Source: a virus
DNA: 64,000 bases
IMG/VR virus record: IMGVR_UViG_3300045971_000895
Location: 1-64,000 of that record
Reading direction: 5' to 3' (one strand)
The notes beneath the pieces were generated by a model, which searched no databases, was not told the origin of the DNA, and worked only from the letters and a program-made list of their open reading frames with translations. The translations under genes and the position numbers were made by a program. Position 1 is the first letter of the stretch. Every line of letters begins with the position of its first letter. Of the stretch, positions 8,634 through 52,275 are shown piece by piece.

Positions 8634-9118
8634 GGGATGTGCTTCCAGGTCTTTCTGTTGACAATGTTCCAGATGAGCTTCTCGGACACTTCGAACTTGC
8701 GAGCCGTGACCGCCAAGGTCTGCCCCGCCGCTACCTCGGCCCTGATGGAGACGACCTGGGTTGGGGTGAGCTTGTTGTTGACGTGCTGCGTCCCATGGAT
8801 GTGGCGGCCCTTCCTCACCTTGTCCTGCATGTTCTCCAGGTGACTTCCTGCGAAGAGATGACTACCTCGCAGGCAGAGGGGCTGGTCGCAGTGGTGCAGG
8901 ACCTGCTCGCCCTCCTCGAGAGGACCGTTCTGGAGAACGAAGGCAACGTGGCTGGCCCGGTAGGTGACGCCGTTGACCTTCACCTTCGGGTAACCATCAG
9001 CGAAGAGTCCAGCAGTCCATCGCCAGCAGGTGTTGGGGCCGTTCTCGTCAGGACCCTTCTTCACCTTCGACCAGAAACGCATAGCTTGGTCGAAGGTGAT
9101 GTCATCGTACTTGATCAC
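8630..9118 (-). CDS. HNH homing endonuclease
   Basis: HHCDQPLC...GSHL...N HNH core; typical HNH_3 phage endonuclease architecture. Confidence 0.7.
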   Translation of the reverse strand: MIKYDDITFDQAMRFWSKVKKGPDENGPNTCWRWTAGLFADGYPKVKVNGVTYRASHVAFVLQNGPLEEGEQVLHHCDQPLCLRGSHLFAGSHLENMQDKVRKGRHIHGTQHVNNKLTPTQVVSIRAEVAAGQTLAVTARKFEVSEKLIWNIVNRKTWKHIP

Positions 9119-9127
9119 TGGAGGTCC

Positions 9128-9337
9128 TCACTTGTAGGAGATGCCGTTACGTCGAAGAAGACTCTCAAGTCGCTTGATCTCCTTGTAGAGGTCGCCAAGC
9201 TCTTGCATGGAGATGAGGGCCCACGGCACGAAGGGAGACACCACCTCGACGCCCCTCTCCGAGAGTTGCACGACTCCTGGGCGTCGGATCCTTCCCAAGC
9301 GCCGGTCCCTGCTCTTGCCGCGCTTGGTGGAGCTCAC
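9128..9337 (-). CDS. small protein whose N-terminus repeats the methyltransferase N-terminus
   Basis: GTG start; (V/M)SSTKRGKSRDRR matches the methyltransferase N-terminus MSSTKRGRSRQRH. Confidence 0.35.
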   Translation of the reverse strand: MSSTKRGKSRDRRLGRIRRPGVVQLSERGVEVVSPFVPWALISMQELGDLYKEIKRLESLLRRNGISYK

Positions 9338-9518: not shown

Positions 9519-10391
9519 TCACAGTCGGATTTCCTCTCCCTTGTCGTTGGTGACCTTCTTGTTCTTCATGGACATCTTCCCGCCGACCGTGCCCCAGATG
9601 GCTTTCTCGACTGCTCGAGACCGCGCTTCTTCCTTGCGGAGGTACGTCTCCTCCCAGGCGCCCATCCAGTGCTTCTTGGCCTTCTTGTTGAGCCACTTCC
9701 CGTAGAGGCGCTTGAGCTTCGTGATCTCCGGGAGGTTCTCGGAAGAGATGCGGGGCCAGATGTCGAGCCAGATGCAGTCGAACTTCCGGTAGGGCTGGGG
9801 CTCCCAGATGCAGCTCGGGGTCCAGGTGAAAGCATCGTGGCAGCTCACCGCGAGCTTGTTGTTCTCCTCCTCGGCGAGCACCTTGCGGATGTGTGGGAGG
9901 ACGAGGTCGATGACCTCCTGGCTCTTCTCCACCACCACGACCATCTTCACGCTCTTCTTGCGGAGGACGGGGATGAGGCTGGCGCCAAGGCCGAGACCCG
10001 CGATGAGGACGCGGCCGCGGGCGTTGTCCATCAGGGGCCGGCTGGAGTGGAGCTCGTAGGGAGCATCCGTCATCATGATCTCCCAGACGTTGTTCACCAG
10101 GACGTGGAGCCGGGTGTAGCGGCCGGGAGGGCAGACGCGGTCCGGACGCCCATTCACCGTGGCGGCCAGGTTCTCGAGCATGAGCTTACGGTCGTCCACC
10201 TTGGCTTCGACGTGCTCGATGGTGACGTTGTCGCTCTCGCCCTCCGGGATGACCTTGTGGAGGGTGCCGGCCATCTCGTGCTTGTTGTCGAGGAGCTTCT
10301 TGGCCACGCGGATCTGCGTGTTGATGTTCTCGTGCAACTTCTTCAGCTGCCGCATCTGAGCGGAGCTGAATCCGAGGTCTGCGTTCTTCAT
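9519..10391 (-). CDS. class I SAM-dependent methyltransferase or aminopropyltransferase-like protein
   Basis: VLIAGLGLGAS is a Gly-rich Rossmann motif. VVVVEKSQEVID and FDCIWLDIW fit the spermidine-synthase-like fold pattern. Confidence 0.5.
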   Translation of the reverse strand: MKNADLGFSSAQMRQLKKLHENINTQIRVAKKLLDNKHEMAGTLHKVIPEGESDNVTIEHVEAKVDDRKLMLENLAATVNGRPDRVCPPGRYTRLHVLVNNVWEIMMTDAPYELHSSRPLMDNARGRVLIAGLGLGASLIPVLRKKSVKMVVVVEKSQEVIDLVLPHIRKVLAEEENNKLAVSCHDAFTWTPSCIWEPQPYRKFDCIWLDIWPRISSENLPEITKLKRLYGKWLNKKAKKHWMGAWEETYLRKEEARSRAVEKAIWGTVGGKMSMKNKKVTNDKGEEIRL

Positions 10392-10404
10392 GTGGGGTAA
10401 GGGC

Positions 10405-10905
10405 CTATGTGCGCTTGCGCTTGAGTGGTTTTGCCGTGAGCCTCTTCGTCTTCTTTGGCTTCACGGCTTCGGGAGCTGCCGCGACCGGGCGCTCTCGTGC
10501 TGCACGAAGAAGGCGAGCCTCACCACGGAGGCGCTCCACCTTCTCTTTCTGCTTGTCGGCGTACTTCTGCGCGCGGGTGCGCTCCTTCTCCGTCGTGGCG
10601 TCGGCCAGCTTCTTCTCCTGCACCGAAGCCCAGTACTCGGCCGCCTTGGCCTGCTTCTCGAGGGACTCTGCGGTCACCTTCCCTCGGATCTTCCCCTTCC
10701 CCCACAGGGAGAGCAGGGAAGTGAACACCTTGCTCTCCGCGCGCTTCGCCAGGTCGTCCGCCACGATGGCAGATTCGGCATCGAGGATGCGGTCGATGGC
10801 CTCGAGGTGCCTGACCTCGAGGATGCTCTTGTCGGTACCGTACTCTTCCAGCATCGCGTGAATCTTCTGCTGGGAGTTGAGGTGGACCTCTTGTACTGGG
10901 GTCAT
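10405..10905 (-). CDS. hypothetical protein with a basic C-terminal tail
   Basis: 166-aa ORF. Confidence 0.5.
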   Translation of the reverse strand: MTPVQEVHLNSQQKIHAMLEEYGTDKSILEVRHLEAIDRILDAESAIVADDLAKRAESKVFTSLLSLWGKGKIRGKVTAESLEKQAKAAEYWASVQEKKLADATTEKERTRAQKYADKQKEKVERLRGEARLLRAARERPVAAAPEAVKPKKTKRLTAKPLKRKRT

Positions 10906-11228
10906 CTCGTCTTCGACGACCGCTTGGGGTCGTACTTGGCCTGAAGACGCTCTACGTCGCCGTCGAGTGCCTTGAGCGTGGAGCGAACCCAGCTGCTGAG
11001 GCTTCCCTTCGTTTCGTCGTAGGACTCGAGGGCATCGACGAGAAGCTTGTTGGCGGCTTCCCGGATATCGCTCTCCCGGACGCCGCGCGCCCGGAAGTTG
11101 TACTGATTGATCTCGAGGTCGACGAGCGGCTTCAGCGCCAGCTTCAACATCTCAAGGGTGACGAGAAGATCCGGCTTCCTCTTCCACTCCATGAGCAGAG
11201 TACTCACTGCCTGATCGGATGCATCCAT
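10902..11228 (-). CDS. hypothetical protein (weak ECF sigma region-2-like pattern)
   Basis: 108 aa. LLVDALESYDETKGSLSSWVRSTL resembles sigma region 2.2-2.3. Confidence 0.4.
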   Translation of the reverse strand: MDASDQAVSTLLMEWKRKPDLLVTLEMLKLALKPLVDLEINQYNFRARGVRESDIREAANKLLVDALESYDETKGSLSSWVRSTLKALDGDVERLQAKYDPKRSSKTR

Positions 11229-11232
11229 CTAC

Positions 11233-11505
11233 TCACCTGTTGCCCTTCTTCTGGGTAGAGATGTGTGGGCCCTTCCTGAACTTGATGTTGCTCTTCTCGA
11301 CTTGCAGGTCAATCCCGAAAGAGTCTGCGACCTCTTCGAGGTACTGATAGTAGGCGGGGTCGTCGAGACAGGTTGCCTCCTTCCAGGCCCAGCGTATGTA
11401 GCCCGGATCATTCGTCGCAACCTGCTCGACAGTTTCCCCTTCGTGCTTGCGACCGCCGAACGTCCAGTTCTCACTGCCGTCCTTCGGGCGCCGCAGGAGT
11501 GACAT
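11233..11505 (-). CDS. DUF3820-like small protein
   Basis: FGGRKHEGETVEQV...DPGYIRWA pattern. Confidence 0.5.
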   Translation of the reverse strand: MSLLRRPKDGSENWTFGGRKHEGETVEQVATNDPGYIRWAWKEATCLDDPAYYQYLEEVADSFGIDLQVEKSNIKFRKGPHISTQKKGNR

Positions 11506-11517
11506 TGTGATTCCTCT

Positions 11518-11889
11518 CTAGGCCTGTGGGTGCCTCGCCGCATAGCGGCCAGCCTTCAGGCCTTGTGTGTACAGATCGGCTTCGTCCTTCTTCAGGACGC
11601 GCCACTGGTGCTCGGGGTACTGCTCTCGCATGTTGCGGACGATGTCGTAGGCCTCGTCTTGCCCTTTGACCGGAGGGAGGTGTGGCCAGGTTCGCCAGAT
11701 GCCACCCAACTCCTTCGACTGCACGACGTAGTAGAGGTTGTCTCGTATGAGTTTGAGCGCGGCCTCTAGCTTCAGCGGTTTCTTCTTCATCGCAGCTCCA
11801 GTGTTGCTGTCTCTCCTTGGTGCTATGATCCTCGTGAGCCTGACGCTGCACCTAGCAGTACCCGGAAGGGCTCCGAAGAACCCTGACAA
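11518..11889 (-). CDS. hypothetical protein
   Basis: 123-aa ORF. Confidence 0.5.
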   Translation of the reverse strand: MSGFFGALPGTARCSVRLTRIIAPRRDSNTGAAMKKKPLKLEAALKLIRDNLYYVVQSKELGGIWRTWPHLPPVKGQDEAYDIVRNMREQYPEHQWRVLKKDEADLYTQGLKAGRYAARHPQA

Positions 11890-12059
11890 TGCCTTCGGGC
11901 CTACGGGGCACGGAAGCGCCGGCGAACGAGGATGACGTGGTGTGGTAGCGGCTCAGAACCTGGCACTACTGGCGGTCGGAAGATCGGTGAGAGATTGCGC
12001 CGCACCGACCGTCAGCACCCAGGTTTTGGGCGAAGGGCGAAGCTGAGCCCTCTACTCCC

Positions 12060-12503
12060 TTATGCCTCAACCCGGAGCTGATTCGCTGCGACGGAGTTGG
12101 CGGGGTTCTGGAACCACTGTGCCATGTGCAGGTCGTACCGGTACATGTGGTCGGCCATCCAGGCGGACATGAAGTTGCCCATCCTGACGATGAGGGGCTT
12201 GTTGTCTCCCTCGACCCTGTACTCGTCGGCCAGCTTGTTGAACGTGGCCGCCATCTGCTGGTGCTGTATCAGGTGCGCGAGGATGAGTGGGTAGCCGGTC
12301 CTTCGCATGGCGGCTTCCTCGTCCTGGAAGTGCTCGGTGACGAGGTAGCCCATCAGGTCGAGGTACTCGACGACGTGCTTGTGTGCCACGTCTCTACGCA
12401 CCGCATCGACGAGTTTCTCTAGACCGGCCAGCAGCTGCTCATGCGCCTGGTCGATCTTGGGAACGCCTGTGCGGACTCGGTCTTCAAGAATGAAGATGGC
12501 CAT
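12060..12503 (-). CDS. bacteriohemerythrin-like protein
   Basis: Hemerythrin His/Glu ligand pattern: IDQAHEQL, HFQDEE...H..H, WMADHMYRYD. Confidence 0.65.
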   Translation of the reverse strand: MAIFILEDRVRTGVPKIDQAHEQLLAGLEKLVDAVRRDVAHKHVVEYLDLMGYLVTEHFQDEEAAMRRTGYPLILAHLIQHQQMAATFNKLADEYRVEGDNKPLIVRMGNFMSAWMADHMYRYDLHMAQWFQNPANSVAANQLRVEA

Positions 12504-12620
12504 GGGAGGAGTCTAACCACTTTCGTTGTCGCTTGGGGAGGGTGTCTTGGGCCAGCTCCCCCTTGTACCGAAGTACACTAACAAGTTGACGTACATCCAC
12601 GAGGTATGGTTCCGTGCCAC
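12504..12620. promoter_or_regulatory. divergent intergenic switch region between the minus early block and the plus block
   Basis: 117-bp gap between divergent genes, containing TTGACG. No confident -10 box identified. Confidence 0.3.
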
Positions 12621-12929
12621 ATGAGCGAGGTTCCATACGTCAGCACGTCCATCGCCCTCCAAGTCGCTGAGTGGGAACGTCGCTTCGAGCGGCTTCCTTC
12701 GAGCTCAGGGCTCCTCTTCGTCAGCATCACGCCCAAGCCCGGCATCGGTGGGTTCGTCCATGAGTTCGACCTCCTCCTCGGCTTCAACAAAGAACTCGCA
12801 GACGTCGGGCTCTCCCTTGCGAAGCACGTCCTCGCAGAAGAGATCGAGAAGTTCGCCATCAACGTCCGCGTCGCACGAGGCCTCGCCTGTGCCAGCGCTC
12901 GTTCAGGTTCTGGTGGCGATCCGGGTTAG
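12606..12929 (+). CDS. hypothetical protein
   Basis: High-GC3 ORF immediately upstream of the XRE gene. Confidence 0.4.
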   Translation: MVPCHMSEVPYVSTSIALQVAEWERRFERLPSSSGLLFVSITPKPGIGGFVHEFDLLLGFNKELADVGLSLAKHVLAEEIEKFAINVRVARGLACASARSGSGGDPG

Positions 12930-12933
12930 CAGG

Positions 12934-13098
12934 ATGACTGCGGTCGAGGCAGCCGCTCGCATGGGCGTCAGCCGGCAGCAGATCTGGAACATCGAGAACG
13001 CCATCCAAGGGCCGCCTTCCGTCACCACGTTGGAGCGCTACGCTCGAGCGGTGGGGGCCAAGGTGGTCGTGAAGCGCCTCTCTGCTCTTCCCCGTTGA
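12934..13098 (+). CDS. XRE-family helix-turn-helix regulator (Cro/CI-like)
   Basis: MTAVEAAARMGVSRQQIWNIENAIQGPPSVTTLERYARAVG is a canonical HTH_XRE. Trimmed to ATG 12934. Confidence 0.6.
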   Translation: MTAVEAAARMGVSRQQIWNIENAIQGPPSVTTLERYARAVGAKVVVKRLSALPR

Positions 13099-13133
13099 CT
13101 CTTCCCATCGACGGGGGTACATCGTCTGTACAC

Positions 13134-13478
13134 ATGGCGGACTTCTTCAACGACGGTGGCCGCAACCCGCTCATCATTCCTGGGCAGGTGCAGCCTGCCG
13201 GCCCGACCTGCCCCCACTGCCACGTGGGCGGAGAGTGGACGGCTCGCAGGATTCAGGGCGTCGCTCACTTCACCTGCAAGAAGTGCAACGGGAAGTGGGA
13301 GGGCGGCCTTCCGCAGGAGCCGCAGGATCCCCGCGTGCCGCTGCCCACCACCAGCTACATCCCCCCGGTCCGCATCGGCAAGGACTCCAAGGGACAGGAC
13401 GTCGAGATCCGAAGGCGCATCGACACCCGCACCGACTTCAGAAAGGGCGGCTTGATACCGCCCGAAGGAGAAGAGTGA
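13134..13478 (+). CDS. zinc-ribbon protein
   Basis: CPHC...CKKC; ATG 13134. Confidence 0.45.
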   Translation: MADFFNDGGRNPLIIPGQVQPAGPTCPHCHVGGEWTARRIQGVAHFTCKKCNGKWEGGLPQEPQDPRVPLPTTSYIPPVRIGKDSKGQDVEIRRRIDTRTDFRKGGLIPPEGEE

Positions 13479-14311
13479 TGGCAGAGAACGAAGGGCCTGT
13501 GGTCTTCGGTGGCAAGGAGCTCGACCCGGATCAGGAGGCGAAGTACAGGTCCCAGATCGCCGAGGCACGCAAGGGCGGGGTCTCCTCGCTGAAGGGTGGC
13601 GACCCGGTCGGCATCGCTCCCAAGGTCGCCATCCCGGTGGGTCAGCGCCCCGTCACTCGCGCGCCAGGGGAAGGCGTGACGCCGCGGCCTCCCGGCTCGC
13701 CGCTCCTCTCGCCAGAGACCGCGCAGCAGCTCCAGGACCTCGCGGCCGCTCAGGTGGCGCAGGCTGCCACCGCCAAGGTCGAGGAGAAGAAGGCCGAAGA
13801 GAAGAAGGTCGAGGAGAGCCTCTTCGATGCCTTCGACTTCGACGGCCGCAACGAGGCCGAGAAGGTCCTCAACAACAAGAAGCGCCGCAAGGAGATCGAG
13901 GATCGCTGCGAGCCCATGAAGCTCGAGGACCTCATCATGCGGGACGAGGTTCAGCAGGTGGTCCAGATCGTCCCGGGCAAGTTCGATGTCACCTACCGCT
14001 CGATGACCCCGGACGACAACCTCTACATCAAGCGGTACATCTCCAAGCACGACACCGGGCAGAGCGACCAGTACGTGCTGGAGAAGTTCGGCATGTGCCA
14101 GCTCACCTGCACGGTCGTCTCCATCAACGGTCGGGCGCTGCCCGAGTACCGCAAGGCTGATGGAGACGTGGACGACGAGCTCTTCGAGAAGAAGCTGAAG
14201 ATGCTCCTCAAGAAGAGCGCCTACGTCGTGGCCGACCTCGGCATCAACTACAGCTGGTTCGACATCAGGGTGAGGAAGCTCCTCAACCCGGACTCCTTGG
14301 GAAATGGCTAA
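13478..14311 (+). CDS. hypothetical protein (277 aa)
   Basis: ATG preceded by GAAGGAGAAG; TGATG overlap with the upstream gene. Confidence 0.6.
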   Translation: MAENEGPVVFGGKELDPDQEAKYRSQIAEARKGGVSSLKGGDPVGIAPKVAIPVGQRPVTRAPGEGVTPRPPGSPLLSPETAQQLQDLAAAQVAQAATAKVEEKKAEEKKVEESLFDAFDFDGRNEAEKVLNNKKRRKEIEDRCEPMKLEDLIMRDEVQQVVQIVPGKFDVTYRSMTPDDNLYIKRYISKHDTGQSDQYVLEKFGMCQLTCTVVSINGRALPEYRKADGDVDDELFEKKLKMLLKKSAYVVADLGINYSWFDIRVRKLLNPDSLGNG

Positions 14312-14382
14312 ACACCGCTGAGGGGTGGGCTAGGGCGAACGTCCTCTACGAGAAGACGAATCGCCCTCCCAAGGCGGGGAGC

Positions 14383-14730
14383 TTGAAGGAAGCGCTCTTC
14401 TTGTCTGTCTGGCTCAGGCGGCAGGAAGCTCAGGTGTTCCAGGTGCGGATCCTCGCACAAGGACTCGCTGACCTTGCGACGAAGGAGAGTCACGTCGCAG
14501 AGATCTTCAAGGAGTACACCGAGAGCGTCTTCCCGTTCACGAAGGGCCAGCAGGACTCGAAGGATGCGGAGATGAAGGCCGTGATGAAGAGGGAGGTCGA
14601 CAAGGGCATGCTCACCTTCCAGGCGCATCCGGTTTCGTTCCTCAGAAACAAGGCGCAAGAGATGCTCGAGCTTCCAGAAGACTTCAAGAAGAAGCTGGCC
14701 GCCAAGGCGGCCGCCAAGGGGAAGAAGTGA
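14383..14730 (+). CDS. hypothetical protein
   Basis: TTG start ORF. Confidence 0.4.
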   Translation: MKEALFLSVWLRRQEAQVFQVRILAQGLADLATKESHVAEIFKEYTESVFPFTKGQQDSKDAEMKAVMKREVDKGMLTFQAHPVSFLRNKAQEMLELPEDFKKKLAAKAAAKGKK

Positions 14731-15071
14731 TGAGAGTCGAGCTGACGGGCTTCTCGCAGGGAGTGTCCTTCGAGGAGAAGGGCGCGATGATCAACTACCT
14801 CGACTTCAGGAAGGACGATGGCTCCTCCTTCCGGATCCCGGTTCCCGAGGAGTCGATGCAGGTGCTGCTCAAAGAGGTCTACGAGAACGGCCAGACGAAG
14901 CAGGCCGCGCCGGCTCCTGAACCCGAGCCACTGCCGGAGGGTGCCGAGGAGTTCGGTGGCGACTTCGAGCCTGGCCAGGAGGAGCCTGAAGTGGCGCCAG
15001 AGGAAGAGCCAGAGGACCCGTACGTGGAGCAGGGAACCCCGGAGTCGGAGGACGACGTTCCGTCGATCTGA
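14727..15071 (+). CDS. acidic protein
   Basis: 114 aa with a Glu/Pro-rich C-terminus. TGATG overlap. Confidence 0.5.
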   Translation: MMRVELTGFSQGVSFEEKGAMINYLDFRKDDGSSFRIPVPEESMQVLLKEVYENGQTKQAAPAPEPEPLPEGAEEFGGDFEPGQEEPEVAPEEEPEDPYVEQGTPESEDDVPSI

Positions 15072-15073
15072 CC

Positions 15074-15508
15074 ATGTTCCTCATCACCATCTGCAACTCC
15101 TGCTACTCCCGCTTCGACGTGACCATCGCGCCGGAGACGAGTCACCTTCTCGCCCAGATGGCGGACGAGGATGGGCTGGCGTCCTGCCCCCGCCACTGTG
15201 GTGGGAAGATCAACGTGACAGGAGACGTGACCATCACCAGCATCGCGCAGGAGCAGAAGGAACAGATCCACCTCACCACCGTAGAGCTCTACCGGGCCAT
15301 CCACGGTGCCGGGCTCCCCGACGAGATTCCGCAGTCGGGTGAGTTGGTCGAGGCCCTGCTCAAGACGCACAAGGTGAAGGACGCTCTGGTCGAGGAGGTC
15401 GGGAACCGCGTCTTCGTCCACGAGCTTCGGCTGGAGAACGGCAGCACCATCCACCTCACCGCCGGCGGCAGCGGCGCGCAGGTGCTGAAGGTCACGAGGG
15501 CAACATGA
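15074..15508 (+). CDS. hypothetical protein
   Basis: 144-aa ORF. Confidence 0.5.
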   Translation: MFLITICNSCYSRFDVTIAPETSHLLAQMADEDGLASCPRHCGGKINVTGDVTITSIAQEQKEQIHLTTVELYRAIHGAGLPDEIPQSGELVEALLKTHKVKDALVEEVGNRVFVHELRLENGSTIHLTAGGSGAQVLKVTRAT

Positions 15509-15843
15509 GCGCACTCGCAGAGCTGTCAGAGGCCGTCCTCCGCCTCGAGCACAAGATGGATCTCCTCTTCCGCTCCCTCGGGCTTGGGGAAGGGATCTTC
15601 CCGCAGATGAACTTCATCGGGCTGAACTGCCCGGTGTGCAAGAAGACGGTCGAGTACCAAGTCGATGTCGTGAACCAGGTCGTGAAGCGCAAGTGCGGCT
15701 GCACTACGGGGAAGCAGCCTCCTCTCATCCCACTCACACCCGTGCCGCAAGGAGCAACCGATGGCAGATCCAATGGAGAGCCTGATCGATCAGGAGCAGT
15801 CGAGGTCAGCACCGAGGACCGTCCTCGCCGCCAAGGGCGTTGA
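15505..15843 (+). CDS. hypothetical protein (CPVC...CGC)
   Basis: 112-aa ORF; the 3' end overlaps the next ORF by about 80 nt, so its end is uncertain. Confidence 0.4.
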   Translation: MSALAELSEAVLRLEHKMDLLFRSLGLGEGIFPQMNFIGLNCPVCKKTVEYQVDVVNQVVKRKCGCTTGKQPPLIPLTPVPQGATDGRSNGEPDRSGAVEVSTEDRPRRQGR

Positions 15844-16033
15844 CATCGCCCTCATCACCTACGTCGACGAGCAGGGGACGCAGATCACCCAGCTCGCCGT
15901 GGTGGGCGACAACCGGGTCCACGTCCTCGACGGCAAGCCGATGGGCTTCAGCAAGGTGTCCACGCCGCAGGGCCTGGCCAACGACTGGCTGCGCGATGGC
16001 GTCTTCGCCAAGCTCGGGCGGAAGGTGAAGTAG
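15761..16033 (+). CDS. hypothetical protein
   Basis: 90-aa ORF. Confidence 0.4.
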   Translation: MADPMESLIDQEQSRSAPRTVLAAKGVDIALITYVDEQGTQITQLAVVGDNRVHVLDGKPMGFSKVSTPQGLANDWLRDGVFAKLGRKVK

Positions 16034-16459
16034 ATGACGGCGAAGATCGCCAGCGAGACGAAGCTCATCCCGCGCCGCGGCTGGGTCCTCGTTCTCTCCG
16101 ACGCCAGGAAGATGTCGCTCGACTCGGGCATCTTCCTGCCACCCTCGGAGACGAAGGCCGAGAAGGTGACGGAGCAGGCGGGGCTCGTCATCCGCCTCGG
16201 CCCGCACGACCACCTCGACAAGATCGGGGTCGTCGAGGGCGACCGCATCGTCTACCGCGGCTTCATGAAGCACCACGTCCCCATCGAGACCGGCGAGTGC
16301 TGGCCGGACGGCTCCACCAAGGAGTTCTTCCTGATGGACGTGACGGACATCCTCGCGGTGGTGCCCGACGGTGTCGAAGTGGGCATCTACACCAGCCGTC
16401 CTTCGCAGCACGCGGTCGAGTCGGTGGACGCCGAGGGCAACGTGAAGATGAGGCGCTGA
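16034..16459 (+). CDS. GroES-like co-chaperonin (Cpn10)
   Basis: IPRRGWVLV...DSGIFLP..TKAEKVTEQAGLVIRLGP...VEGDRIVYRGF...EFFLMDVTDILAVV parallels the GroES RPLHDRVIV...AGGIVL...GEVLAVG...GDIV... pattern, including the mobile-loop position. Confidence 0.7.
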   Translation: MTAKIASETKLIPRRGWVLVLSDARKMSLDSGIFLPPSETKAEKVTEQAGLVIRLGPHDHLDKIGVVEGDRIVYRGFMKHHVPIETGECWPDGSTKEFFLMDVTDILAVVPDGVEVGIYTSRPSQHAVESVDAEGNVKMRR

Positions 16460-21668: not shown

Positions 21669-21805
21669 GGGCTAAGGAAACAATCACGGCCACCGCCTTC
21701 TGGCGCAAGGTGCCCCGTCACCACGGTGGTCCGGCGGACTCGCCGCCTCTCGCGCGACTGCGCGAATCTCACACCACCTTCTGCCACTGAACTGAGGATC
21801 TTTGC

Positions 21806-22135
21806 ATGGCCACTTTCACCGAACTCCATGAGCGACTGGTCGCCGCACGAAACCGCAAGGCGGTTCTCCAGATGCTCGTCGAGCACATCGACAACAACTT
21901 CATCCCCTCCGGGCCGGCGAAGGCCGAGAGGGTGCTCCTCAACGACGACAGGCTCGCTGTCCCGCAGGAGATGTTCGAAGCAGTCATCGCCGACACTCTC
22001 GATGCCGAGATCGAGCAGCTCAACCAAGAGATCACCCGCATCACCAACACCGAGCTCGCGCAGAAGACAGCTACCCCGAAGGCCGAGCCAGAGAAGAAGA
22101 CCAAGAAGTCCCACAAGAACCAGGAGGCAACGTGA
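21806..22135 (+). CDS. hypothetical protein
   Basis: 109-aa ORF following a 137-bp gap. Confidence 0.5.
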   Translation: MATFTELHERLVAARNRKAVLQMLVEHIDNNFIPSGPAKAERVLLNDDRLAVPQEMFEAVIADTLDAEIEQLNQEITRITNTELAQKTATPKAEPEKKTKKSHKNQEAT

Positions 22136-22686
22136 GCGAAGAGACGGCAGAGGTGGAGGTCGGCAGCCCCGGGACCATCGAGGTCCCCTCGGAGACTGTC
22201 GAGAGGAAGCCCACCAAGATCGAAGAGAAGCGCCGGAAGATCTACATCGACCGGATGCAGCGCCACATGGCCAAGGGGCTGACGGTCGAGCAGGCGCACA
22301 TGAAGATCCAGGAGGAGGACTACGAGCGCCTCCCCATCGAGGCCAAGCTGAAGCGCCTCGAGATGGCCTGCATGCAGGCCATTCAGCGTCTCGCTGGAGA
22401 GCTGGGCAGCCTCCAGAACAACGACCAGGTCATCGCCGACGCCATGGACTCCAACTTCCGCGCCATCACCAAGGCGCTCGTGAAGCTCGGCGTCACCGGC
22501 GAGGAGCAGGTCGCCTTCCTCAAGGAGGCCGAGGAGGAGATCAAGAAGGACCGCGAGAACCAGCAGAAGGTGCGGGAAGCGCACGCGGCCGCAGTGCAGG
22601 AGGAGGCCACGAAGGCCCAGGTGGAGAAGACCATCAACCAGCCCGGGGAGGCCTCGATCCCCGACGGCGCCACGGAGTTCGCATGA
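22132..22686 (+). CDS. hypothetical protein
   Basis: 184-aa ORF. Confidence 0.5.
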   Translation: MSEETAEVEVGSPGTIEVPSETVERKPTKIEEKRRKIYIDRMQRHMAKGLTVEQAHMKIQEEDYERLPIEAKLKRLEMACMQAIQRLAGELGSLQNNDQVIADAMDSNFRAITKALVKLGVTGEEQVAFLKEAEEEIKKDRENQQKVREAHAAAVQEEATKAQVEKTINQPGEASIPDGATEFA

Positions 22687-23222
22687 GCAGCTTCGACATC
22701 GCTCTCCCCGTCATCCTGAAGCACGAGGTGGACCCGGTCCTGGGCCCGTACTGCAACGTGGAGGAGGACCATGGCGGCCCCACCTGCTACGGCGTCACCA
22801 TCGCGGAGTACCGGCGCTACAAGCCCGGCGCGACGGTGGAGGACCTGAAGAACATCCCGATGTCGGACGTCTACACCATCTTCAAGGCCAACTACTGGCA
22901 GCCGCTCGGCCTCGACGAGGTGAACAGCCAGATAGTGGCGACGAAGCTCGCCGACATCGCCATCAACGGCGGGCCCGGTGCTGCCTCTGCCATCGCCCAG
23001 CGCGCCTGCATCGCCTGCGGCCAGGCGGTGAAGGTGGACGGCTGGATCGGTCCCAACACCCGGGCCGCCATCAACGCCATCCCGCCGAAGGATCTCCTGG
23101 TGGCGATCAAGGAGCAGCAGCGGGACTTCTACCTGGACATCGTCCAGCACGACAAGACCCAGCTGACCTTCCTCTACAACTGGATGCGCCGCTCCGAGTG
23201 GCCCCAGCCCGGCGAGGCCTGA
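22683..23222 (+). CDS. endolysin: GH108 lysozyme-like domain plus PG_binding_3 peptidoglycan-binding domain
   Basis: N-terminal ILKHE..DP..GG.T.YG.T pattern of Glyco_hydro_108. C-terminal GQAVKVDGWIGPNTRAAI matches the peptidoglycan-binding motif. Confidence 0.7.
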   Translation: MSSFDIALPVILKHEVDPVLGPYCNVEEDHGGPTCYGVTIAEYRRYKPGATVEDLKNIPMSDVYTIFKANYWQPLGLDEVNSQIVATKLADIAINGGPGAASAIAQRACIACGQAVKVDGWIGPNTRAAINAIPPKDLLVAIKEQQRDFYLDIVQHDKTQLTFLYNWMRRSEWPQPGEA

Positions 23223-40195: not shown

Positions 40196-40354
40196 GTTTC
40201 ACCTCAGCGTAGGGGTTGGGAATCGGGCTCTTCGTGAGCGCTTTGGCTCACAGCCTTATGCCTACACTCGGCCCCAGATTGCCTTGAAGTTCTTGGAGTT
40301 GCCGGGGTCAGGGTGCTACCTTGACCAGAAGCCCATCGGCCCTGAGGGAGGGGC

Positions 40355-43300: not shown

Positions 43301-43816
43301 TACCAAGGGGCAGATGACGAGGGGAAGAAGAAGCTGCTCAAGGCCCTGGGCCCTGCCGCCGCTGCCGCCATCCAAAGCGCGGCTGGAGTCGAGAAGAACC
43401 TCTCCGGTCTCGAAGGCTCGCAAGTCACGATGGATCAGCTTGTTCAGCGGGGGATGAGCCCTGGAGAAGTCCTCAACGCAGCCCCAGGGGCCGCGGAGAA
43501 CGGCGTCAACCTCACTCCCTCCATGATCTCGAAGCTCGCCGGCTCTCGTGCTGCCTCCGGCCTTGCTGGAAGCTACGGCGCAAAGGAGGGTGCGGCGGAG
43601 ACTGGTCGCGAGATGGTCAAGGTACTGAAAGACATCTCTGCGAACTCCGACAAGTCGGTGGCCTTGATGACTGTCGTGGCGGCCCAAGCGATCGGTCTCA
43701 ACATCCAAGGCGACGCAAACGAGACCGTCAACTCTCTACGCGCCAACTACGGCAAGGAGAAGAACACCCCCGGGCTGACCTTGGATGACGTCAAGAAGAA
43801 GATAGGGATGAAATGA
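40355..43816 (+). CDS. large Gly/Met/Ala-rich virion protein (tape-measure or internal-protein-like)
   Basis: 1153 aa; Gly/Met-rich N-terminal 150 aa, then a long alpha-helical Ala/Gly/Lys-rich region; heads the plus-strand structural block. Confidence 0.6.
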   Translation: MLSSNDVAAMFSAQGQNFAQQNYYAQTVGISNPAMSIGAYRGTGIQSGFQPAGPSFPGVRPPPPSFSYANGGAFGPGYGSGNNVAGHMMSGMGAAATLGGIGMGMMIPGLDPISGFMGGMKAAGGFGMRGVMGGMGAAALPLAGAMLAAHTVGSFVGGGQQQAQIANQLGGFQFNNPASRTGQGFTRQDSSDIGSSIRSMAHIPDMLTSVEELTRLLPTMRRAGVMSGVKDAAEFNRRFKETVTTLRDMSKMMGTTMEEASQFFEHNRQIGMSGKTSQLRNTLNAQFTSGMTGMTMGQTMGMQQGGAQIARQFGARGASGAQGVTNMAQGIQGALEAGFLDQDTLTDVTGLQGAEAVGAASQKMYGFMANLSQTAPGRLIMAGAMTRGKDGKVKLDEELIKKLNRGEITVDQLKARAGSLSDNDKISFAANAKNLGGQFAGQVDLPKFMQGLVGGKGQEAASLLLQQYSGGQMSESDVSLMTSMGKGNQGVDMESFKGVRSREMQIRESTDPEIMWKRLKTKMHNATFGRAEKAGADVYSSIGKMYDNFIDDLVGRHVVALSKEGAKALQQGMSGAGGKEMRDMFAAAHGLKPGSDIGSSFGESGFANTVRGWGAASGTSGLTSFGQNKQAAGLVGAGGSLLAKINDLADSGRLVTAAGKASAEDLRMLKVKINKDTGGGFNEADHDVRSQMTREGMAKVIAASMREKGYGVTSNGDDGVADLEGMLLSGDTKGIESLTGKSMADLGADLGDTAGGRFVRTGVSHRTEKGGLMNDFLSGALHSTEQNVMKVSAREAAGGSAVSKYIKTRDIDSLRKDAESELGNLSGDSRAIVRGSANVRSIALGMLQSKTKKDQIEAILHGNDNGEDRALALSKIGVAVSSQEADQLYQLTLDSGFTKAEKGISMFHAAGALGDKWIGENKMGDVAKGLREGIGALKEGEKGSPEAGIAGALSTAASAYSADWNDKTAKGWKGALQKTIASYQGADDEGKKKLLKALGPAAAAAIQSAAGVEKNLSGLEGSQVTMDQLVQRGMSPGEVLNAAPGAAENGVNLTPSMISKLAGSRAASGLAGSYGAKEGAAETGREMVKVLKDISANSDKSVALMTVVAAQAIGLNIQGDANETVNSLRANYGKEKNTPGLTLDDVKKKIGMK

Positions 43817-44016
43817 GAGAGATCATCGAACAGGATATGGTTGTCGATGGGAAGGTCGTTCGCGTGACCCTCATCAACGACCCCAACATTGACGACGTCC
43901 TCATCGGCGAGTCGCAGGACTACGCTTATGGTCTCTCGAGTGGTACGACTTCCCCGGACCGCCGAGTGGTGAGAAGCGTTCGCGAGATCTTCCTGATGTT
44001 CGGGGTGCAGCGATGA
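43813..44016 (+). CDS. hypothetical small protein
   Basis: ATGA overlap. Confidence 0.4.
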   Translation: MREIIEQDMVVDGKVVRVTLINDPNIDDVLIGESQDYAYGLSSGTTSPDRRVVRSVREIFLMFGVQR

Positions 44017-48595: not shown

Positions 48596-49249
48596 ATGGA
48601 CCTGAACGACATCCAGCAGCTGGCCTTCCAGGACGAGTTTCACAAGATCGCCAAGTCGAAGAACGTGGCGAAGAACCTCGCACGGATCATGAACATGAGC
48701 CCGGCCAAGATCCATGGGGATGCGCGGCTGAAGTGGGCCACTTACCGTGGCATGGCTCACGACCTCGGTCGCCCCGAAGGCAAGCAGCTCGCGCTCGCAG
48801 GCAAGGGCAGCGTCGTCGGCACCAAGGGCTCGAAGTCTTCCCAGTTCGGGCAGAACTCGAAGGAGCGGGCCGACGAAGTGATGTCGAAGATGAAGGAGTA
48901 CAAGGGCCGCGAGACCCCCTACAAGCTCGACCCCAAGGGCCGTGACGCGGTGGACAAGGTCAAGAAGGCCGGCGAGTCCCGCATCGGCCGCAAGCCCATC
49001 GGCATCGAGAAGCTGCTGGAGAACGAGGCCGAGGTCACAGGCCTCCCCGAGAACTTCACCGTGGCCCCCGAGCTGGTCGAGACCGCCGAGACGGCGGCCA
49101 AGGCCCTCGTGAAGATGGCTCTCTCCTCGACGGCCTCCAAGCGGTTGGGCCTCCTCGCGGCCGGCGGCGCCGGCGCCCTCGTGGCGCGGCAGGCCAAGGA
49201 AGACCACAAGCTCGGTCGGATGGTCCGCAAGCAGCAGGGCCAGCAGTAG
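48596..49249 (+). CDS. hypothetical protein
   Basis: 217-aa ORF. Confidence 0.5.
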   Translation: MDLNDIQQLAFQDEFHKIAKSKNVAKNLARIMNMSPAKIHGDARLKWATYRGMAHDLGRPEGKQLALAGKGSVVGTKGSKSSQFGQNSKERADEVMSKMKEYKGRETPYKLDPKGRDAVDKVKKAGESRIGRKPIGIEKLLENEAEVTGLPENFTVAPELVETAETAAKALVKMALSSTASKRLGLLAAGGAGALVARQAKEDHKLGRMVRKQQGQQ

Positions 49250-49262
49250 CACCGGAGGTCTC

Positions 49263-49886
49263 GTGTACCGAGAGGTCCTCCACGGCGCGTTCCTGGACGA
49301 GCTCCAGAAGATCAGCGAGGTGAGCCTCGCTGGTCTCTCGCATGAATCCGTCCAGCGACTGGCAGCCCCAGCGCAGCCGATGGAGACCGCGGGTCTCACG
49401 AAGGCCCTTGCCGTGCTCGCGCGTTACGAGGGGATGCCGAAGATGGCATTCGTCAGCGGCGTCTCGAACCCCGAACTCCCGCAGATGCGGAGAGTGACCG
49501 GCATCAAGCGGGGCAAGAAGAACGACAAGGGAGCGGTCGAGCAGGGCAAGAACCTGGCCGGCTACACCGCCGGGGGCTTGGGCATCGGTCGCCTCGCCGG
49601 ATACGTGGCACACGGCCCACACGCCGCGATCACCGAGGCCGCGAAGAAGTCGGCTCACGGCAAGATGTGGTGGGGCACCGTGGCTGGCGGCGCTCTCGGA
49701 GCGGCGGAGTACGCGCGCAAGCGGCTCAAGGAACGGAAGGCTGCCGGTCAAGAGAAGAAGGCTGCCCTCGTCCCCACCGTGCAATCCCCTGCGAAGCAGC
49801 TGCACTACGGCCAGCAGACGGGGAAGACCCAGGCTCGCGGTCTGAAGTCTGGTCCCTCCATCCACCGTCTCGCCACCAAGATCTAG
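49263..49886 (+). CDS. hypothetical protein
   Basis: GTG start behind GGAGG. Confidence 0.5.
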   Translation: MYREVLHGAFLDELQKISEVSLAGLSHESVQRLAAPAQPMETAGLTKALAVLARYEGMPKMAFVSGVSNPELPQMRRVTGIKRGKKNDKGAVEQGKNLAGYTAGGLGIGRLAGYVAHGPHAAITEAAKKSAHGKMWWGTVAGGALGAAEYARKRLKERKAAGQEKKAALVPTVQSPAKQLHYGQQTGKTQARGLKSGPSIHRLATKI

Positions 49887-49895
49887 GAGACCACC

Positions 49896-50429
49896 ATGAA
49901 GCTCCGCCTCAAGAAGACCGCTGGTCGCTACGACACCGACGCCCCCTACCAGTCGGCGCACGTGCCCAGCGTCCCCGAGAACATGGCCTCCCAGCGGGAC
50001 CGCGAAGAGCTCGACCGGTTCCACACAACCCTGGACTCCCGCGTGGACACTCAGGCGACTCTGAAGAAGCTCTTCGGCTACGCCACCACCTCCCGTGAGA
50101 AGGAGCGCGCCAAGGCGAAGAAGCTCTTCACGCAGGCAGGCGTGGCCTCCACCAACTCTCCCGGCCTCCAGCCGAACGTGCTGGAGACTCCGGCGCTCGA
50201 GTCGGACGCCGGACAGGCTCCTGCCGTGAAGACTGCCTCGATGGAGCCGGCCTACTCGATCACCCCGCGCATCGACGCCTGGTTCGAGAAGAACGCCAGC
50301 TCCCTCCTCACCGAGGCGCAGCGGCGCTACCCCGAGCTGCTGAAGGTGGCCGCCATCCCGTCTCCGACCCTGAAGAAGGGGAAGAGCACTCCGGCCGTCG
50401 CGAGCAGCCTCTCTGGCGGCAGCGCCTAG
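49896..50429 (+). CDS. hypothetical protein
   Basis: 177-aa ORF. Confidence 0.5.
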   Translation: MKLRLKKTAGRYDTDAPYQSAHVPSVPENMASQRDREELDRFHTTLDSRVDTQATLKKLFGYATTSREKERAKAKKLFTQAGVASTNSPGLQPNVLETPALESDAGQAPAVKTASMEPAYSITPRIDAWFEKNASSLLTEAQRRYPELLKVAAIPSPTLKKGKSTPAVASSLSGGSA

Positions 50430-50433
50430 CGCC

Positions 50434-51297
50434 ATGATCGAGGTCTCGGACACAAGTCCGGACCTGGACTGGGTCCTGGGGAAGCTCGCGGCCGCCAAGA
50501 AGCAGGCGCCCGTGGCTTCCCCTGCGGCTTCTCCAGAGCAGAAGAAGCTGGACCTCCGGGCGAAGCAGCCGAAGGAGCTCGAACTCTGGAAGACGTGGAA
50601 GGATGGGGGCCAGAAGCCTCACCTCCTCGAGCCTCTCCTGAAGTCCTTCGCGCCCCTCATCAACTCGCGCATCAACCTCTACAAGAGGGCGGAGATCCCC
50701 ACCGCGGCGCTCGAGCAGGAGCACCACAAGTGGTTCTTGAAGGGGCTTCAGACCTTCGACCCCTCCAAGGGCGCCGCGCTCAACACGCACCTCACCACCA
50801 ACCTGAAGAAGGCCGGGCGGTGGATCGAGGCCAACAAGAACTTCGCGTACATCCCCGAGAACGTCTCGCGCAACATCGGCGCATACAAGGCGTTCAAGGG
50901 AGAGCTGGGTGAGCGTCTGGGGTACGAGCCGGACGACAAGACCATCCTCGACTTCGCCATCAAGGAGAAGCACCCGAAGCTGGGCGTGCTCTCCTTGAAA
51001 GACATCAAGCGCATCAACACCGACCAGCGCAAGGGCCTCATCGAGAAGGGGCATGAGGACGACCTCCTCTCCAACAGCACCGTCGACCCGCGGGAGGTCG
51101 AGGTGGCGCACCTCATCATTCCGCAGCTCACCCCACAGGAGCGGCTCGTCCACGAGCACACGCTGGGGCTGAACGGGAAGGCGCAGCTCAAGCCTGGGGC
51201 CATCGCCAAGAAGCTGAAGATGGACAACTCCAAGGTGGCGAAGCTGCGCTCTTCGATCTGGAACAAGATGAAGCCCTACCTCGGGACAGATCCATGA
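50434..51297 (+). CDS. sigma-70-family RNA polymerase sigma factor (regions 2, 3 and 4)
   Basis: Region 2: FLKGLQTFDPSKGAALNTHLTTNLKKAGRWI. Region 3: RNIGAYK. Region 4 HTH: LTPQERLVHEHTLGLNGKAQLKPGAIAKKLKMDNSKVAKLRSSIWNKMK. Confidence 0.65.
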   Translation: MIEVSDTSPDLDWVLGKLAAAKKQAPVASPAASPEQKKLDLRAKQPKELELWKTWKDGGQKPHLLEPLLKSFAPLINSRINLYKRAEIPTAALEQEHHKWFLKGLQTFDPSKGAALNTHLTTNLKKAGRWIEANKNFAYIPENVSRNIGAYKAFKGELGERLGYEPDDKTILDFAIKEKHPKLGVLSLKDIKRINTDQRKGLIEKGHEDDLLSNSTVDPREVEVAHLIIPQLTPQERLVHEHTLGLNGKAQLKPGAIAKKLKMDNSKVAKLRSSIWNKMKPYLGTDP

Positions 51298-51500
51298 CGA
51301 AGATAGAGCGACTGACTCGTCTCCAAAAGGCCACCGACGACTACGTGGACCAGGAGCTGAAGCGCATCGACGAAGAGGTGGTCGTCCTCGAGGACGTTCT
51401 GAAGGCCCGTCGCGCAGGACAGGGGGCCGCCACAGATGCAGTTGCTCCCGCCAGCGCGATCGCAGAGGCAGACCTCGATGCGTACTTGAGGGGAGCGTAA
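51294..51500 (+). CDS. small protein downstream of the sigma factor (anti-sigma or regulator candidate)
   Basis: ATGA overlap with the sigma gene. Confidence 0.4.
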   Translation: MTKIERLTRLQKATDDYVDQELKRIDEEVVVLEDVLKARRAGQGAATDAVAPASAIAEADLDAYLRGA

Positions 51501-51502
51501 TC

Positions 51503-51826
51503 GTGGAGGAACTCTTCCAGCTCATCATCAAGTCCTACGGGCTCCTCGGGCTCGTCATGCTCTCGCCCTTCGTGGCGCTGAAGTTCATGTGGAGCCACGC
51601 CAAGGACCTCCAGAAGGACTTGAAGGCGGCCAACGAGCGGATCAACGAGACGCACTCCCGCCGGGTCGAGGACTCGAAGGAGATTGCCGACAAGCTCATG
51701 GAGATGATCAAGGAGCACGCCGAGCTCTCGAAGGAGACCAACATCGCCCTCGAGCGAGTCGGCGACATGCTCTCTGTGCTCCAGAACACAGGCGTCAGCT
51801 ACATGAGGCACAACGGGGGACGTTGA
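51503..51826 (+). CDS. membrane protein (one N-terminal transmembrane helix)
   Basis: GTG start; hydrophobic N-terminus GLLGLVMLSPFVALKF. Confidence 0.45.
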   Translation: MEELFQLIIKSYGLLGLVMLSPFVALKFMWSHAKDLQKDLKAANERINETHSRRVEDSKEIADKLMEMIKEHAELSKETNIALERVGDMLSVLQNTGVSYMRHNGGR

Positions 51827-51837
51827 GAGGATGAGTC

Positions 51838-52017
51838 ATGCACTACGGACGAAAGCAGTCATCTGCTTTGCACCTCCAGCCCCCTGAGCTGGAGTCCGAT
51901 CCCAAGCTGAAGCTCGCCATGGAGTCCATGGACCAGCTCATCCGCGCGGCCAAGGCCAACCGGACAAAGGTGAAGGAGCTCGAAGTCCAGATCGCGAACT
52001 TCACCAAGCAGAGGTAG
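51838..52017 (+). CDS. hypothetical 59-aa protein (absent from the ORF track)
   Basis: ATG behind a GAGAGGA Shine-Dalgarno; high GC3; read directly from the sequence. Confidence 0.3.
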   Translation: MHYGRKQSSALHLQPPELESDPKLKLAMESMDQLIRAAKANRTKVKELEVQIANFTKQR

Positions 52018-52020
52018 CCG

Positions 52021-52275
52021 ATGTTCTTCCAGCGGTGGAGGGCCGAGCGTAAGGCTCGGGAAGAGACGAAGCGCCGGCTCAGGGAGGTCGTCATCACTGC
52101 GACCGCCATCAAGGGCCTCGACATTCCCCTCAAGGAGCCGACCGAGGAGCAGTATTCGGCCACCGCCTCCTTCGCCATCGTGAAGAAGTCTGTCGAACAG
52201 GCCACGGAAGCAAAGCGCACCGCCAGAGGTGCTGCCCAGCGTATTCTGGGGATGTTCGAGAAGACCAAGAAGTAG
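52021..52275 (+). CDS. hypothetical protein
   Basis: 84-aa ORF. Confidence 0.4.
   Translation: MFFQRWRAERKAREETKRRLREVVITATAIKGLDIPLKEPTEEQYSATASFAIVKKSVEQATEAKRTARGAAQRILGMFEKTKK

Follow-up and report, generated by a model that had tools for sequence, protein, structure and literature searches.

A divergent sigma-70-family factor among the virion genes of an uncultured phage lineage that encodes a fused bacterial-type RNA polymerase

A stretch of 64,000 nucleotides (nt) from an uncultured virus (IMG/VR record IMGVR_UViG_3300045971_000895, positions 1 to 64,000; hereafter the window) encodes a 287-amino-acid (aa) protein that is a divergent sigma-70-family factor, secure at the level of profile and fold. 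Its gene lies among virion genes and is followed by open reading frames (ORFs) for a 68-aa and a 107-aa protein. The genome from which the window derives almost certainly also encodes an RNA polymerase (RNAP) of the bacterial type, in which beta and beta' are fused. On balance, the 287-aa protein is probably the specificity subunit of the phage's own polymerase, packaged together with it for host-independent early transcription.

We find that the family assignment is carried by profiles and structure. Single-sequence searches with curated models stay below threshold: the 287-aa protein has no match to Pfam Sigma70_r2, Sigma70_r3 or Sigma70_r4, and the RpoD-type models of NCBIfam return 12-18 bits against cut-offs of more than 300. 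It does match the PHROG family phrog_351, 'RNA polymerase sigma factor', at 3.4e-7, and its weak single-sequence matches in the PDB are all to group 1/2 sigmas over regions 2-3. The phmmer alignments to SigB and RpoS span regions 2.1-2.4 and include in region 2.2 the L-x-Q-E...F-D pattern of cellular sigmas. A profile built from 41 family members matches ~59 distinct sigma-70-family sequences in the PDB, best RpoS (1.3e-10), with which it is collinear from region 2.2 through region 4.2, up to RpoS residue 326. Likewise, Pfam Sigma70_r3 matches 12 of the 41 members, at best with 5.2e-10, the window protein itself not being among them. The AlphaFold2 model (predicted local distance difference test score, pLDDT, 82) places helices 254-261 and 265-283 in a helix-turn-helix (HTH), and a Foldseek search of the PDB with this model gives 115 matches at E<=0.001; all of the 50 listed are sigma chains (SigA, RpoS, SigB, FliA, WhiG), and the alignments cover the full protein. 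The sigma2, sigma3 and sigma4 domains are each supported, and region 1.1 is missing. The sequence-only reading of this DNA had recognised regions 2, 3 and 4 and had named the lack of Sigma70 hits in Pfam as an outcome that would speak against it; the regions stand by profile and by fold, and the lack of Pfam hits is what we find. The protein also has a conserved, clade-specific N-terminal extension of ~45 residues (W-V-L-x-K-L-x-A-A-K-K), and belongs to a large family, with 430 representatives at 50% identity for E<=1e-30 and 1480 at E<=1e-10.

Among deposited phages, the sigma has its closest relative in Gp10 of Salmonella phage Arash (hhalign 99.6%, E 3.5e-24), which is 30% identical over half of the protein. 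Arash Gp206 corresponds to a bacterial-type beta joined to the N-terminal half of beta', Gp216 to the C-terminal half of beta', and the two match bacterial subunits with E values of 1e-45 to 1e-72. In mass spectrometry (MS) of Arash virions, sigma Gp10 was detected at 100% coverage with 24 unique peptides and 467 spectra, Gp216 gave 1210 spectra, and Gp206, named 'RNA polymerase beta', was the top-detected virion protein with 3516 spectra, above the major capsid protein (PMC10585845). Sigma and RNAP are co-present in all four deposited phages with a sigma match. In the records of Vibrio phages D69, D148 and D181, neither the sigma homolog nor the RNAP carries any annotation beyond 'hypothetical protein'; the two in D69 lie at 10995-11684 of OZ195729.1 (10992-11681 in our locus L324) and at ~143-150 kb, respectively, and in D148 and D181 a homing endonuclease interrupts the RNAP region.

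Searches of the 64-kb window by tblastn with the Arash RNAP, portal and capsid proteins give no match, and the polymerase lies outside it. Relatives of the sigma were sampled as 16 IMG/VR viral contigs of 75-197 kb. A DNA scan for the catalytic beta' motif NADFDGD, restricted to GC-rich codons given that the fully degenerate version was swamped by giant-virus RNAPs, matched three of these 16. In one of the three, locus L183, the motif falls in a single-chain beta-beta' ORF of 2434 aa (1909-9213, minus strand) that is 32% identical to Gp206 over 1488 residues and matches Gp216 in its C-terminal part. By an alignment-based scan, at least 374 IMG/VR stretches encode relatives of this RNAP, and eight of the 16 sigma contigs are among the best 80. 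In a large protein collection the clade enzyme has ~2080-2130 aa, with NADFDGD and the Pfam domains RNA_pol_Rpb1 and RNA_pol_Rpb2; such a single chain is far shorter than E. coli beta plus beta'. Several clade members reach 2430-3390 aa and contain intein or homing-endonuclease domains (PF14528, PF14890, PF05204).

How closely is this enzyme tied to the sigma of the window? The match lists for sigma and RNAP share at least ten coincidences of exact contig size in base pairs (bp). The ENA contig k141_847058 (196,070 bp) encodes RNAP P0101 (2106 aa) and also a sigma 80% identical to that of the window; this sigma gene has fully syntenic surroundings and precedes the RNAP gene by 71 kb on the same strand. 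A length of 198,259 bp is given for the JGI contig of each of three proteins, namely the window's sigma and 68-aa protein, both as exact sequences, and RNAP P0107 (2103 aa); it is because of this agreement that we assign the fused polymerase to the window's own genome. On k141_847058 the RNAP gene adjoins one for a protein with a faint match to Phage_base_V (baseplate) and lies ~8.6 kb upstream of a terminase-like gene; in Arash, the RNAP gene follows the portal gene. The beta' clamp helix is the main docking site of sigma region 2. In the phage enzyme this docking site is retained, aligning without gaps to bacterial beta' though its sequence has diverged.

The sigma gene itself is embedded in a module of virion genes. 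The window has a G+C content of 62-65% and covers about one third of a phage genome of ~198 kb; AT skew and codon-position GC divide it into four transcription blocks, at ~1-12.5 kb (minus), 13-23 kb (plus), 23-40 kb (minus) and 40-64 kb (plus). Within the last of these, a co-directional run of genes extends from 40355 to at least 52275, with gaps of only -4 to +13 nt between 48596 and 52275. No canonical promoter is found within this run, the canonical sigma-70 scan stays at background, and terminator-like sites between 39 and 58 kb are at background as well (10 observed, 8.8 expected). The sigma, 68-aa and 107-aa ORFs are present exactly where the sequence-only reading had put them, down to the ATGA coupling of the first two, and all three show coding-type codon-position GC (GC3 0.71-0.93) and are conserved in relatives. 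Gene order is common to the window, Arash gp4-gp10 and D69 genes 4-11: a large protein, an ORF of ~69 aa, a protein of ~470 aa, another large protein, one or more small ORFs, the sigma, and a small ORF. The 479-aa protein, g479, is homologous to Arash gp6 and D69 gene 7 (hhalign 97.7%, 1.8e-12; tblastn 1e-13). For the 995-aa protein, g995, the similarity to Arash gp8 is a short profile match of 48 columns only (hhalign 87.6%, 3.5e-6), and for the 1153-aa product of the first gene the similarity to D69 gene 4 (hhalign 34.5%, E 4e-4, 165 collinear columns) is only suggestive of homology. These three neighbours have zero sequence matches in Pfam, PHROG or the PDB, and megablast of 20 kb of the window against deposited phages finds none. 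Arash Gp4, Gp6 and Gp8 were all detected by MS in purified virions (PMC10585845). Because the upstream genes are homologous and syntenic to these virion proteins, the earlier placing of the sigma within a structural block is borne out.

The reading that we prefer follows from these observations taken together. A bacterial-type core requires a sigma for promoter-specific initiation. Since the core needs a sigma, and since both genes travel together in the clade genomes examined, a sigma cognate to the phage core is the most economical explanation. A position in the late virion operon is poor for switching late genes on and natural for a packaged protein; given this position and the Arash virion data, we judge packaging to be most likely. 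We propose that a fused beta-beta' of ~2100 aa, encoded ~71 kb downstream of the sigma gene, would form the phage core, that the sigma would be made late, as part of one long virion-gene transcript running from 40355 to at least 52275, and that sigma and polymerase would both be packaged in the virion and enter the cell together with the DNA. The delivered holoenzyme would start phage transcription without the host enzyme. The ~70-aa helical protein might serve as a partner of the sigma or of the polymerase, or be a component of the virion, and this is the weakest step of the scheme. The sequence-only reading had taken the gene for a late-gene sigma factor, and this is probably wrong, given that the lineage encodes its own RNAP, that the Arash sigma and RNAP are found in virions, and that the late-operon position is unsuited to such a role.

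Several observations weigh against this proposal. In group 1 sigmas, the aromatic residues of region 2.3 (E. coli Y430, W433 and W434) serve -10 melting; in the phmmer alignment of the window protein H, T and N replace them, and the family consensus has W at the first of the three positions only. Arash, the one relative that has been studied and whose virions inform the packaging argument, is distant at 30% identity. The link between the window's genome and its RNAP rests on the equal figure of 198,259 bp rather than on a record name. The promoter-like elements described below have canonical TTGnnn/TAnnnT geometry, so that a host sigma could read them too, and no promoter class is assignable to the phage sigma. 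Finally, the Arash authors warn of possible carry-over of abundant enzymes into their particle preparations, in which RNR, ligases and helicases were likewise detected (PMC10585845).

That same caution about enzyme contamination (PMC10585845) speaks for an explanation to which we give a smaller though real chance, namely that the sigma is cognate to the phage polymerase and stays unpackaged. It would then direct or sustain the middle and late transcription carried out by freshly synthesised phage polymerase, and early genes would fall to host RNAP or to packaged core working with another factor. Co-occurrence of sigma and RNAP is expected here just as in our proposal, and the elements of sigma-70 geometry upstream of both the sigma operon and the RNAP gene would fit autoregulated late expression. 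However, the Arash sigma has spectral counts comparable with those of bona fide structural proteins, its RNAP exceeds even the major capsid protein, and in all relatives examined the two genes lie within virion-gene modules.

A TTG..AGTT-type repeat upstream of 40355 had been suggested as a possible cognate promoter. The repeat exists (cTTGaAGTT/cTTGgAGTT, 40283-40300), and ahead of the operon it shares bases with the -35-like box of TTGGAG-N18-TACCTT, which resembles a promoter (Table 1). TGnTAnnnT is found at the orthologous site in five relatives (L001, L003, L010, L011 and L014), and upstream of the RNAP gene TTGnnn-N17/18-TAyyyT occurs in 45 of 80 loci, with an 18-nt spacer in 36 of the 45, against a rough base-composition expectation of ~0.05 per locus. 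Within the window the picture is different: a matrix scan for TTGnnn-N17/18-TAnnnT does not rise above shuffled sequence. The shared promoter motif that had been predicted for the upstream regions of late genes in the plus-strand block was not found, a comparison that could hardly succeed, because this block has essentially one upstream region.

The lack of such a motif bears on the model of the sequence-only reading, in which the sigma redirects the host core to late promoters in the manner of SPO1 gp34 or T4 gp55 and the phage polymerase works independently. This is how sigma factors of large phages are usually read (PMC7824862, PMC13282480), the protein keeps regions 2-4 with a region 2.2 pattern (L-x-Q-E...FD) like that of cellular sigmas, and its gene sits among late-type genes. 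We nevertheless regard the model as distinctly improbable. The sigma is accompanied by a bacterial-type core in the 80%-identical relative, in 8 of 16 IMG/VR contigs and in 4 of 4 deposited phages; a sigma encoded solely within the late operon cannot easily initiate that operon; and, besides the missing motif, the sigma is detected in Arash virions.

A second kind of site lies in the gaps upstream of minus-strand non-structural genes. The 8-mer GGCATAAG occurs three times in the window, where 0.49 occurrences are expected, and recurs at orthologous sites in relatives. In 16 related loci it stands in the same orientation 50-190 nt upstream of the RNAP gene, flanked 3-4 nt downstream by GTAGAG or TGTCGA. 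It shows no overall enrichment (37 occurrences, against a median of 35 for 8-mers of the same composition), and the signal is positional only. Like the TTGnnn/TAnnnT element, GGCATAAG is not statistically enriched within the window, and for both the support is conservation across genomes. GGCATAAG is a candidate for either a divergent promoter or a regulator-binding site. For this site, GGCAAC-N17-CATAAG was considered as a bipartite promoter of the minus strand and set aside, as it probably conflates two elements: its GGCAAC box is the reverse complement of the TTGACC -35 box in the plus-strand TTGACC-N17/18-TAyyyT, which undercuts the bipartite reading.

A shorter relative of the sigma is encoded in a minus-strand non-structural operon. 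This 108-aa paralog matches the hidden Markov model of the sigma family at positions 53-132 (E 4.5e-11) and is 30% identical to residues 55-125 of the sigma over 76 aa by BLASTP; regions 3 and 4 are missing from it, and it has no Pfam match. A role as a minimal second specificity factor is conceivable, as is one as a decoy for the core.

The 68-aa protein is soluble and charged, and in its AlphaFold2 prediction (pLDDT 90, from a shallow alignment) residues 3-67 form a single unbroken helix. A search with the protein returned itself and one close relative, and the wider ~70-aa family was found through the ORFs adjoining sigma in related loci. Its members share the motif R-L-x-x-L...E-x-x-R-I-x-x-E-V...L-x-G-R-T-G...D-L-x-x-Y-L and lie 0-2 ORFs downstream of the sigma even where the sigmas are only 28-33% identical and other neighbours have changed. 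A functional tie to the sigma or the polymerase is plausible, although we would put no great trust in it. The more specific idea that the 68-aa protein is an anti-sigma or a co-factor of the sigma, with the 107-aa membrane protein anchoring or releasing it, is doubtful to a similar degree. The ATGA translational coupling, the linkage kept at low sigma identity, and the single long, amphipathic-looking helix, which if correctly modelled would make a plausible binding peptide, all favour it. On the other hand, the protein has no significant match in Pfam, PHROG, NCBIfam or PADLOC, to anti-sigma families (ASD/ZAS, FlgM, AsiA, Rsd, SpoIIAB) or to any other, and it has no counterpart in Arash or D69, both of which retain sigma and RNAP. 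In many relatives the ~70-aa gene directly precedes a conserved gene for a ~310-aa protein, and the linkage could be to that gene instead. In the 80%-identical relative, the sigma gene is separated from that for the ~70-aa protein by an inserted ORF of 46 aa (10857-10997 in L001, 5016-5156 in L002), whose I-HmuI NUMOD-like match is weak; because this insertion breaks the ATGA coupling, the coupling is not conserved even among close relatives.

The 107-aa protein is kept in the closer clade only. It has an N-terminal hydrophobic segment (residues ~8-29, KD19 1.8-2.1), conserved in eight relatives, and then a helical C-terminal part. Thus the membrane helix that had been noticed is there. The suggested holin-like role does not follow, as the protein belongs to no such family, its family matches being sub-threshold only (Phage_Gp23 0.002, Rz-like spanin 0.054), and the endolysin gene is 28 kb away. 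Unlike the classical membrane anti-sigmas, the 107-aa protein also has no cytoplasmic domain, its transmembrane helix lying at the very N-terminus. PADLOC finds no defence-system match for the sigma, the 68-aa protein or the 108-aa paralog, and weak ones for the 107-aa protein (DpdH 3.8e-4, PtuB 1.1e-3).

Table 1. Positions of the features discussed, in window coordinates unless another locus is named
Feature	Position	Strand	Remarks
Sigma ORF	50434-51297	+	287 aa
Sigma N-terminal extension	residues 1-45	+	approximate
Sigma region 2	residues ~46-135; 50569-50838	+	approximate
Sigma region 3	residues ~140-205; 50851-51048	+	approximate
Sigma region 4, HTH	residues ~219-284; 51088-51285	+	approximate
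68-aa ORF	51294-51500	+	ATGA overlap of sigma stop TGA and next ATG
107-aa ORF	51503-51826	+	GTG start; 2-nt gap after 68-aa ORF
Clade RNAP fusion	10001-16321 of locus L323		outside the window
Promoter-like element TTGGAG-N18-TACCTT	40293-40322	+	TG one base before -10 box; ends 33 nt before operon ATG
8-mer GGCATAAG	40255-40262; 12059-12066; 36115-36122	- (all)	in gaps upstream of minus-strand non-structural genes
Sigma region-2-only paralog, 108 aa	10902-11228	-	in a non-structural operon; the GGCATAAG site at 12066 lies upstream
First operon gene, 1153 aa	40355-43816	+	stands where Arash has gp4 and D69 has gene 4 (abundant virion protein)
67-aa ORF	43813-44016	+	conserved in relatives; position of Arash gp5 and D69 gene 5 (69 aa)
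g479, 479 aa	44026-45465	+	homolog of Arash gp6 and D69 gene 7
g995, 995 aa	45556-48543	+	stands where Arash has gp8 (virion cell-wall hydrolase)
Three small genes (217, 207, 177 aa)	48596-50429	+	packed tightly 5' of sigma; kept in close relatives; no family matches
Two small genes (59, 84 aa)	51838-52275	+	end of tightly packed run, before collagen-like fibre gene
Collagen-like Gly-X-Y repeat protein, 1533 aa	52352-56953	+	next co-directional gene; probable fibre
Glycosyltransferase/methyltransferase fusion	57028-60213		downstream of collagen-like gene
GT1	60210-61352		downstream of collagen-like gene
B12-binding radical SAM enzyme	61199-62836		downstream of collagen-like gene
GH108/PG_binding_3 endolysin	21726-23222		28 kb from 107-aa gene
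Hemerythrin-domain protein	12060-12503	-	Pfam 1.3e-8
Small ExoX-like_C protein	11233-11505	-	
YpsA/SLOG-DprA-like protein, 470 aa	30289-31701	-	
Transposase-like gene	2152-3096	-	phrog_10081, 1.8e-16

Beyond the tightly packed run, the 1533-aa collagen-like protein consists mostly of repeats, with a local G+C of 75% and non-repeat N- and C-terminal domains; Pfam Collagen matches an identical copy of its gene in locus L325. The glycosyltransferase/methyltransferase, GT1 and radical SAM cluster that follows may modify this fibre or the virion. Elsewhere in the window, an 879-aa protein (5201-7840, minus strand) matches Pfam MVP_shoulder (6.8e-28) and Vault_3, and in the PDB residues ~477-830 of the eukaryotic Major Vault Protein (E 5e-22). 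It has relatives of 42-43% identity in uncultured 'huge phage' genomes of 462-735 kb (LR756500, LR756501, LR756503). A vault-protein-like gene is unexpected in phages.

What would be new in this system? Reviews, the latest from 2026, sort large phages into those with split, sigma-less RNAPs (phiKZ, AR9) and those that lack an RNAP and carry sigmas directed at the host enzyme (PMC7824862, PMC13282480). In the searchable literature we find the combination of the two undescribed beyond the gene annotations of the Arash isolation paper, and subscription journals may hold more. Multisubunit phage RNAPs and phage sigmas are each already known; their union in a fused, bacterial-type and probably virion-borne form appears to be new. 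The lineage is environmental and widespread: its polymerase is encoded on at least 374 IMG/VR stretches, and its sigmas form 430 clusters at 50% identity. A bolder view, which we offer only tentatively, is that this clade of ~180-210-kb phages carries in the particle a complete initiation machine, single-chain beta-beta' plus dedicated sigma, and that nearby accessory factors switch its stages. In that case the ~70-aa helix might be a regulator of sigma or core or a substitute small subunit, and the paralog at 10902-11228, in analogy to T4 gp55, might either be a decoy or add specificity of its own that needs no -35 box. If this view holds, the dichotomy of 'split sigma-less phage RNAP' and 'phage sigma on host RNAP' would break; if sigma and core cooperate and travel in the particle, theirs would be a third strategy of host-independent phage transcription, and a compact natural system in which to study how sigma and core recognise each other, what sets promoter specificity, and how a polymerase assembles in the absence of alpha and omega. 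The sigma and the fused RNAP could also serve as a marker pair to classify a large block of viral dark matter. The cultured members Arash, D69, D148 and D181 make the question directly testable.

Among known systems the nearest is that of Arash and Vibrio phages D69, D148 and D181, which encode bacterial-type beta/beta' elsewhere in a genome of ~180-200 kb, as does the window's lineage. The Arash sigma is shorter (234 aa) and lacks the N-terminal extension, and the Arash polymerase is split (beta plus beta'-N; beta'-C), whereas in the window's clade it is a single chain. The 68-aa and 107-aa proteins have no Arash-type counterpart. Hosts of the Arash/D69 group are enterobacteria and vibrios, whereas the window represents an uncultured lineage of 63% GC. 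The sigma-RNAP system of Arash has been annotated, without functional analysis. Bacterial group 2/3 sigmas (RpoS, SigB, FliA/WhiG) share with the phage sigma the order sigma2-sigma3-sigma4 without region 1.1, and RpoS, SigA, SigB and FliA are its best sequence and fold matches. It differs from the group 2/3 proteins in falling below Pfam thresholds, in its replaced aromatics, in its N-terminal extension, and in having a large family of its own.

For the polymerase, the comparison is with phiKZ and AR9, in which a phage-encoded, double-psi-beta-barrel multisubunit RNAP exists with one copy delivered by the virion, and by analogy this would be the model for the window's lineage. The phiKZ and AR9 enzymes consist of 4-5 polypeptides with only a very remote relationship to bacterial beta/beta'. 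They occur in two paralogous sets and are without a sigma-70 homolog, its place being taken by gp68 in phiKZ and gp226 in AR9 (PMC7824862, PMC13282480). The window's lineage shares with them catalytic subunits of the beta/beta' type. It shares neither the split polypeptides nor the sigma-less state, and any second RNAP set was looked for within the window only. Instead it has a fused chain of clear bacterial likeness (Pfam RNA_pol_Rpb1/Rpb2; E 1e-43 to 1e-72 in comparison with bacterial subunits) together with a true sigma-70-family protein. Phage proteins of that family, with a presumed preference for phage-specific promoters, are likewise found in SPO1 (gp28 and gp34), in T4 (gp55), and in jumbo phages that lack an RNAP. 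Phages of the SPO1/T4 type have no polymerase of their own, and their sigma genes are expressed ahead of the genes they control. Unlike these, the sigma of the window is encoded in a late-type virion operon, in a phage with its own core enzyme.

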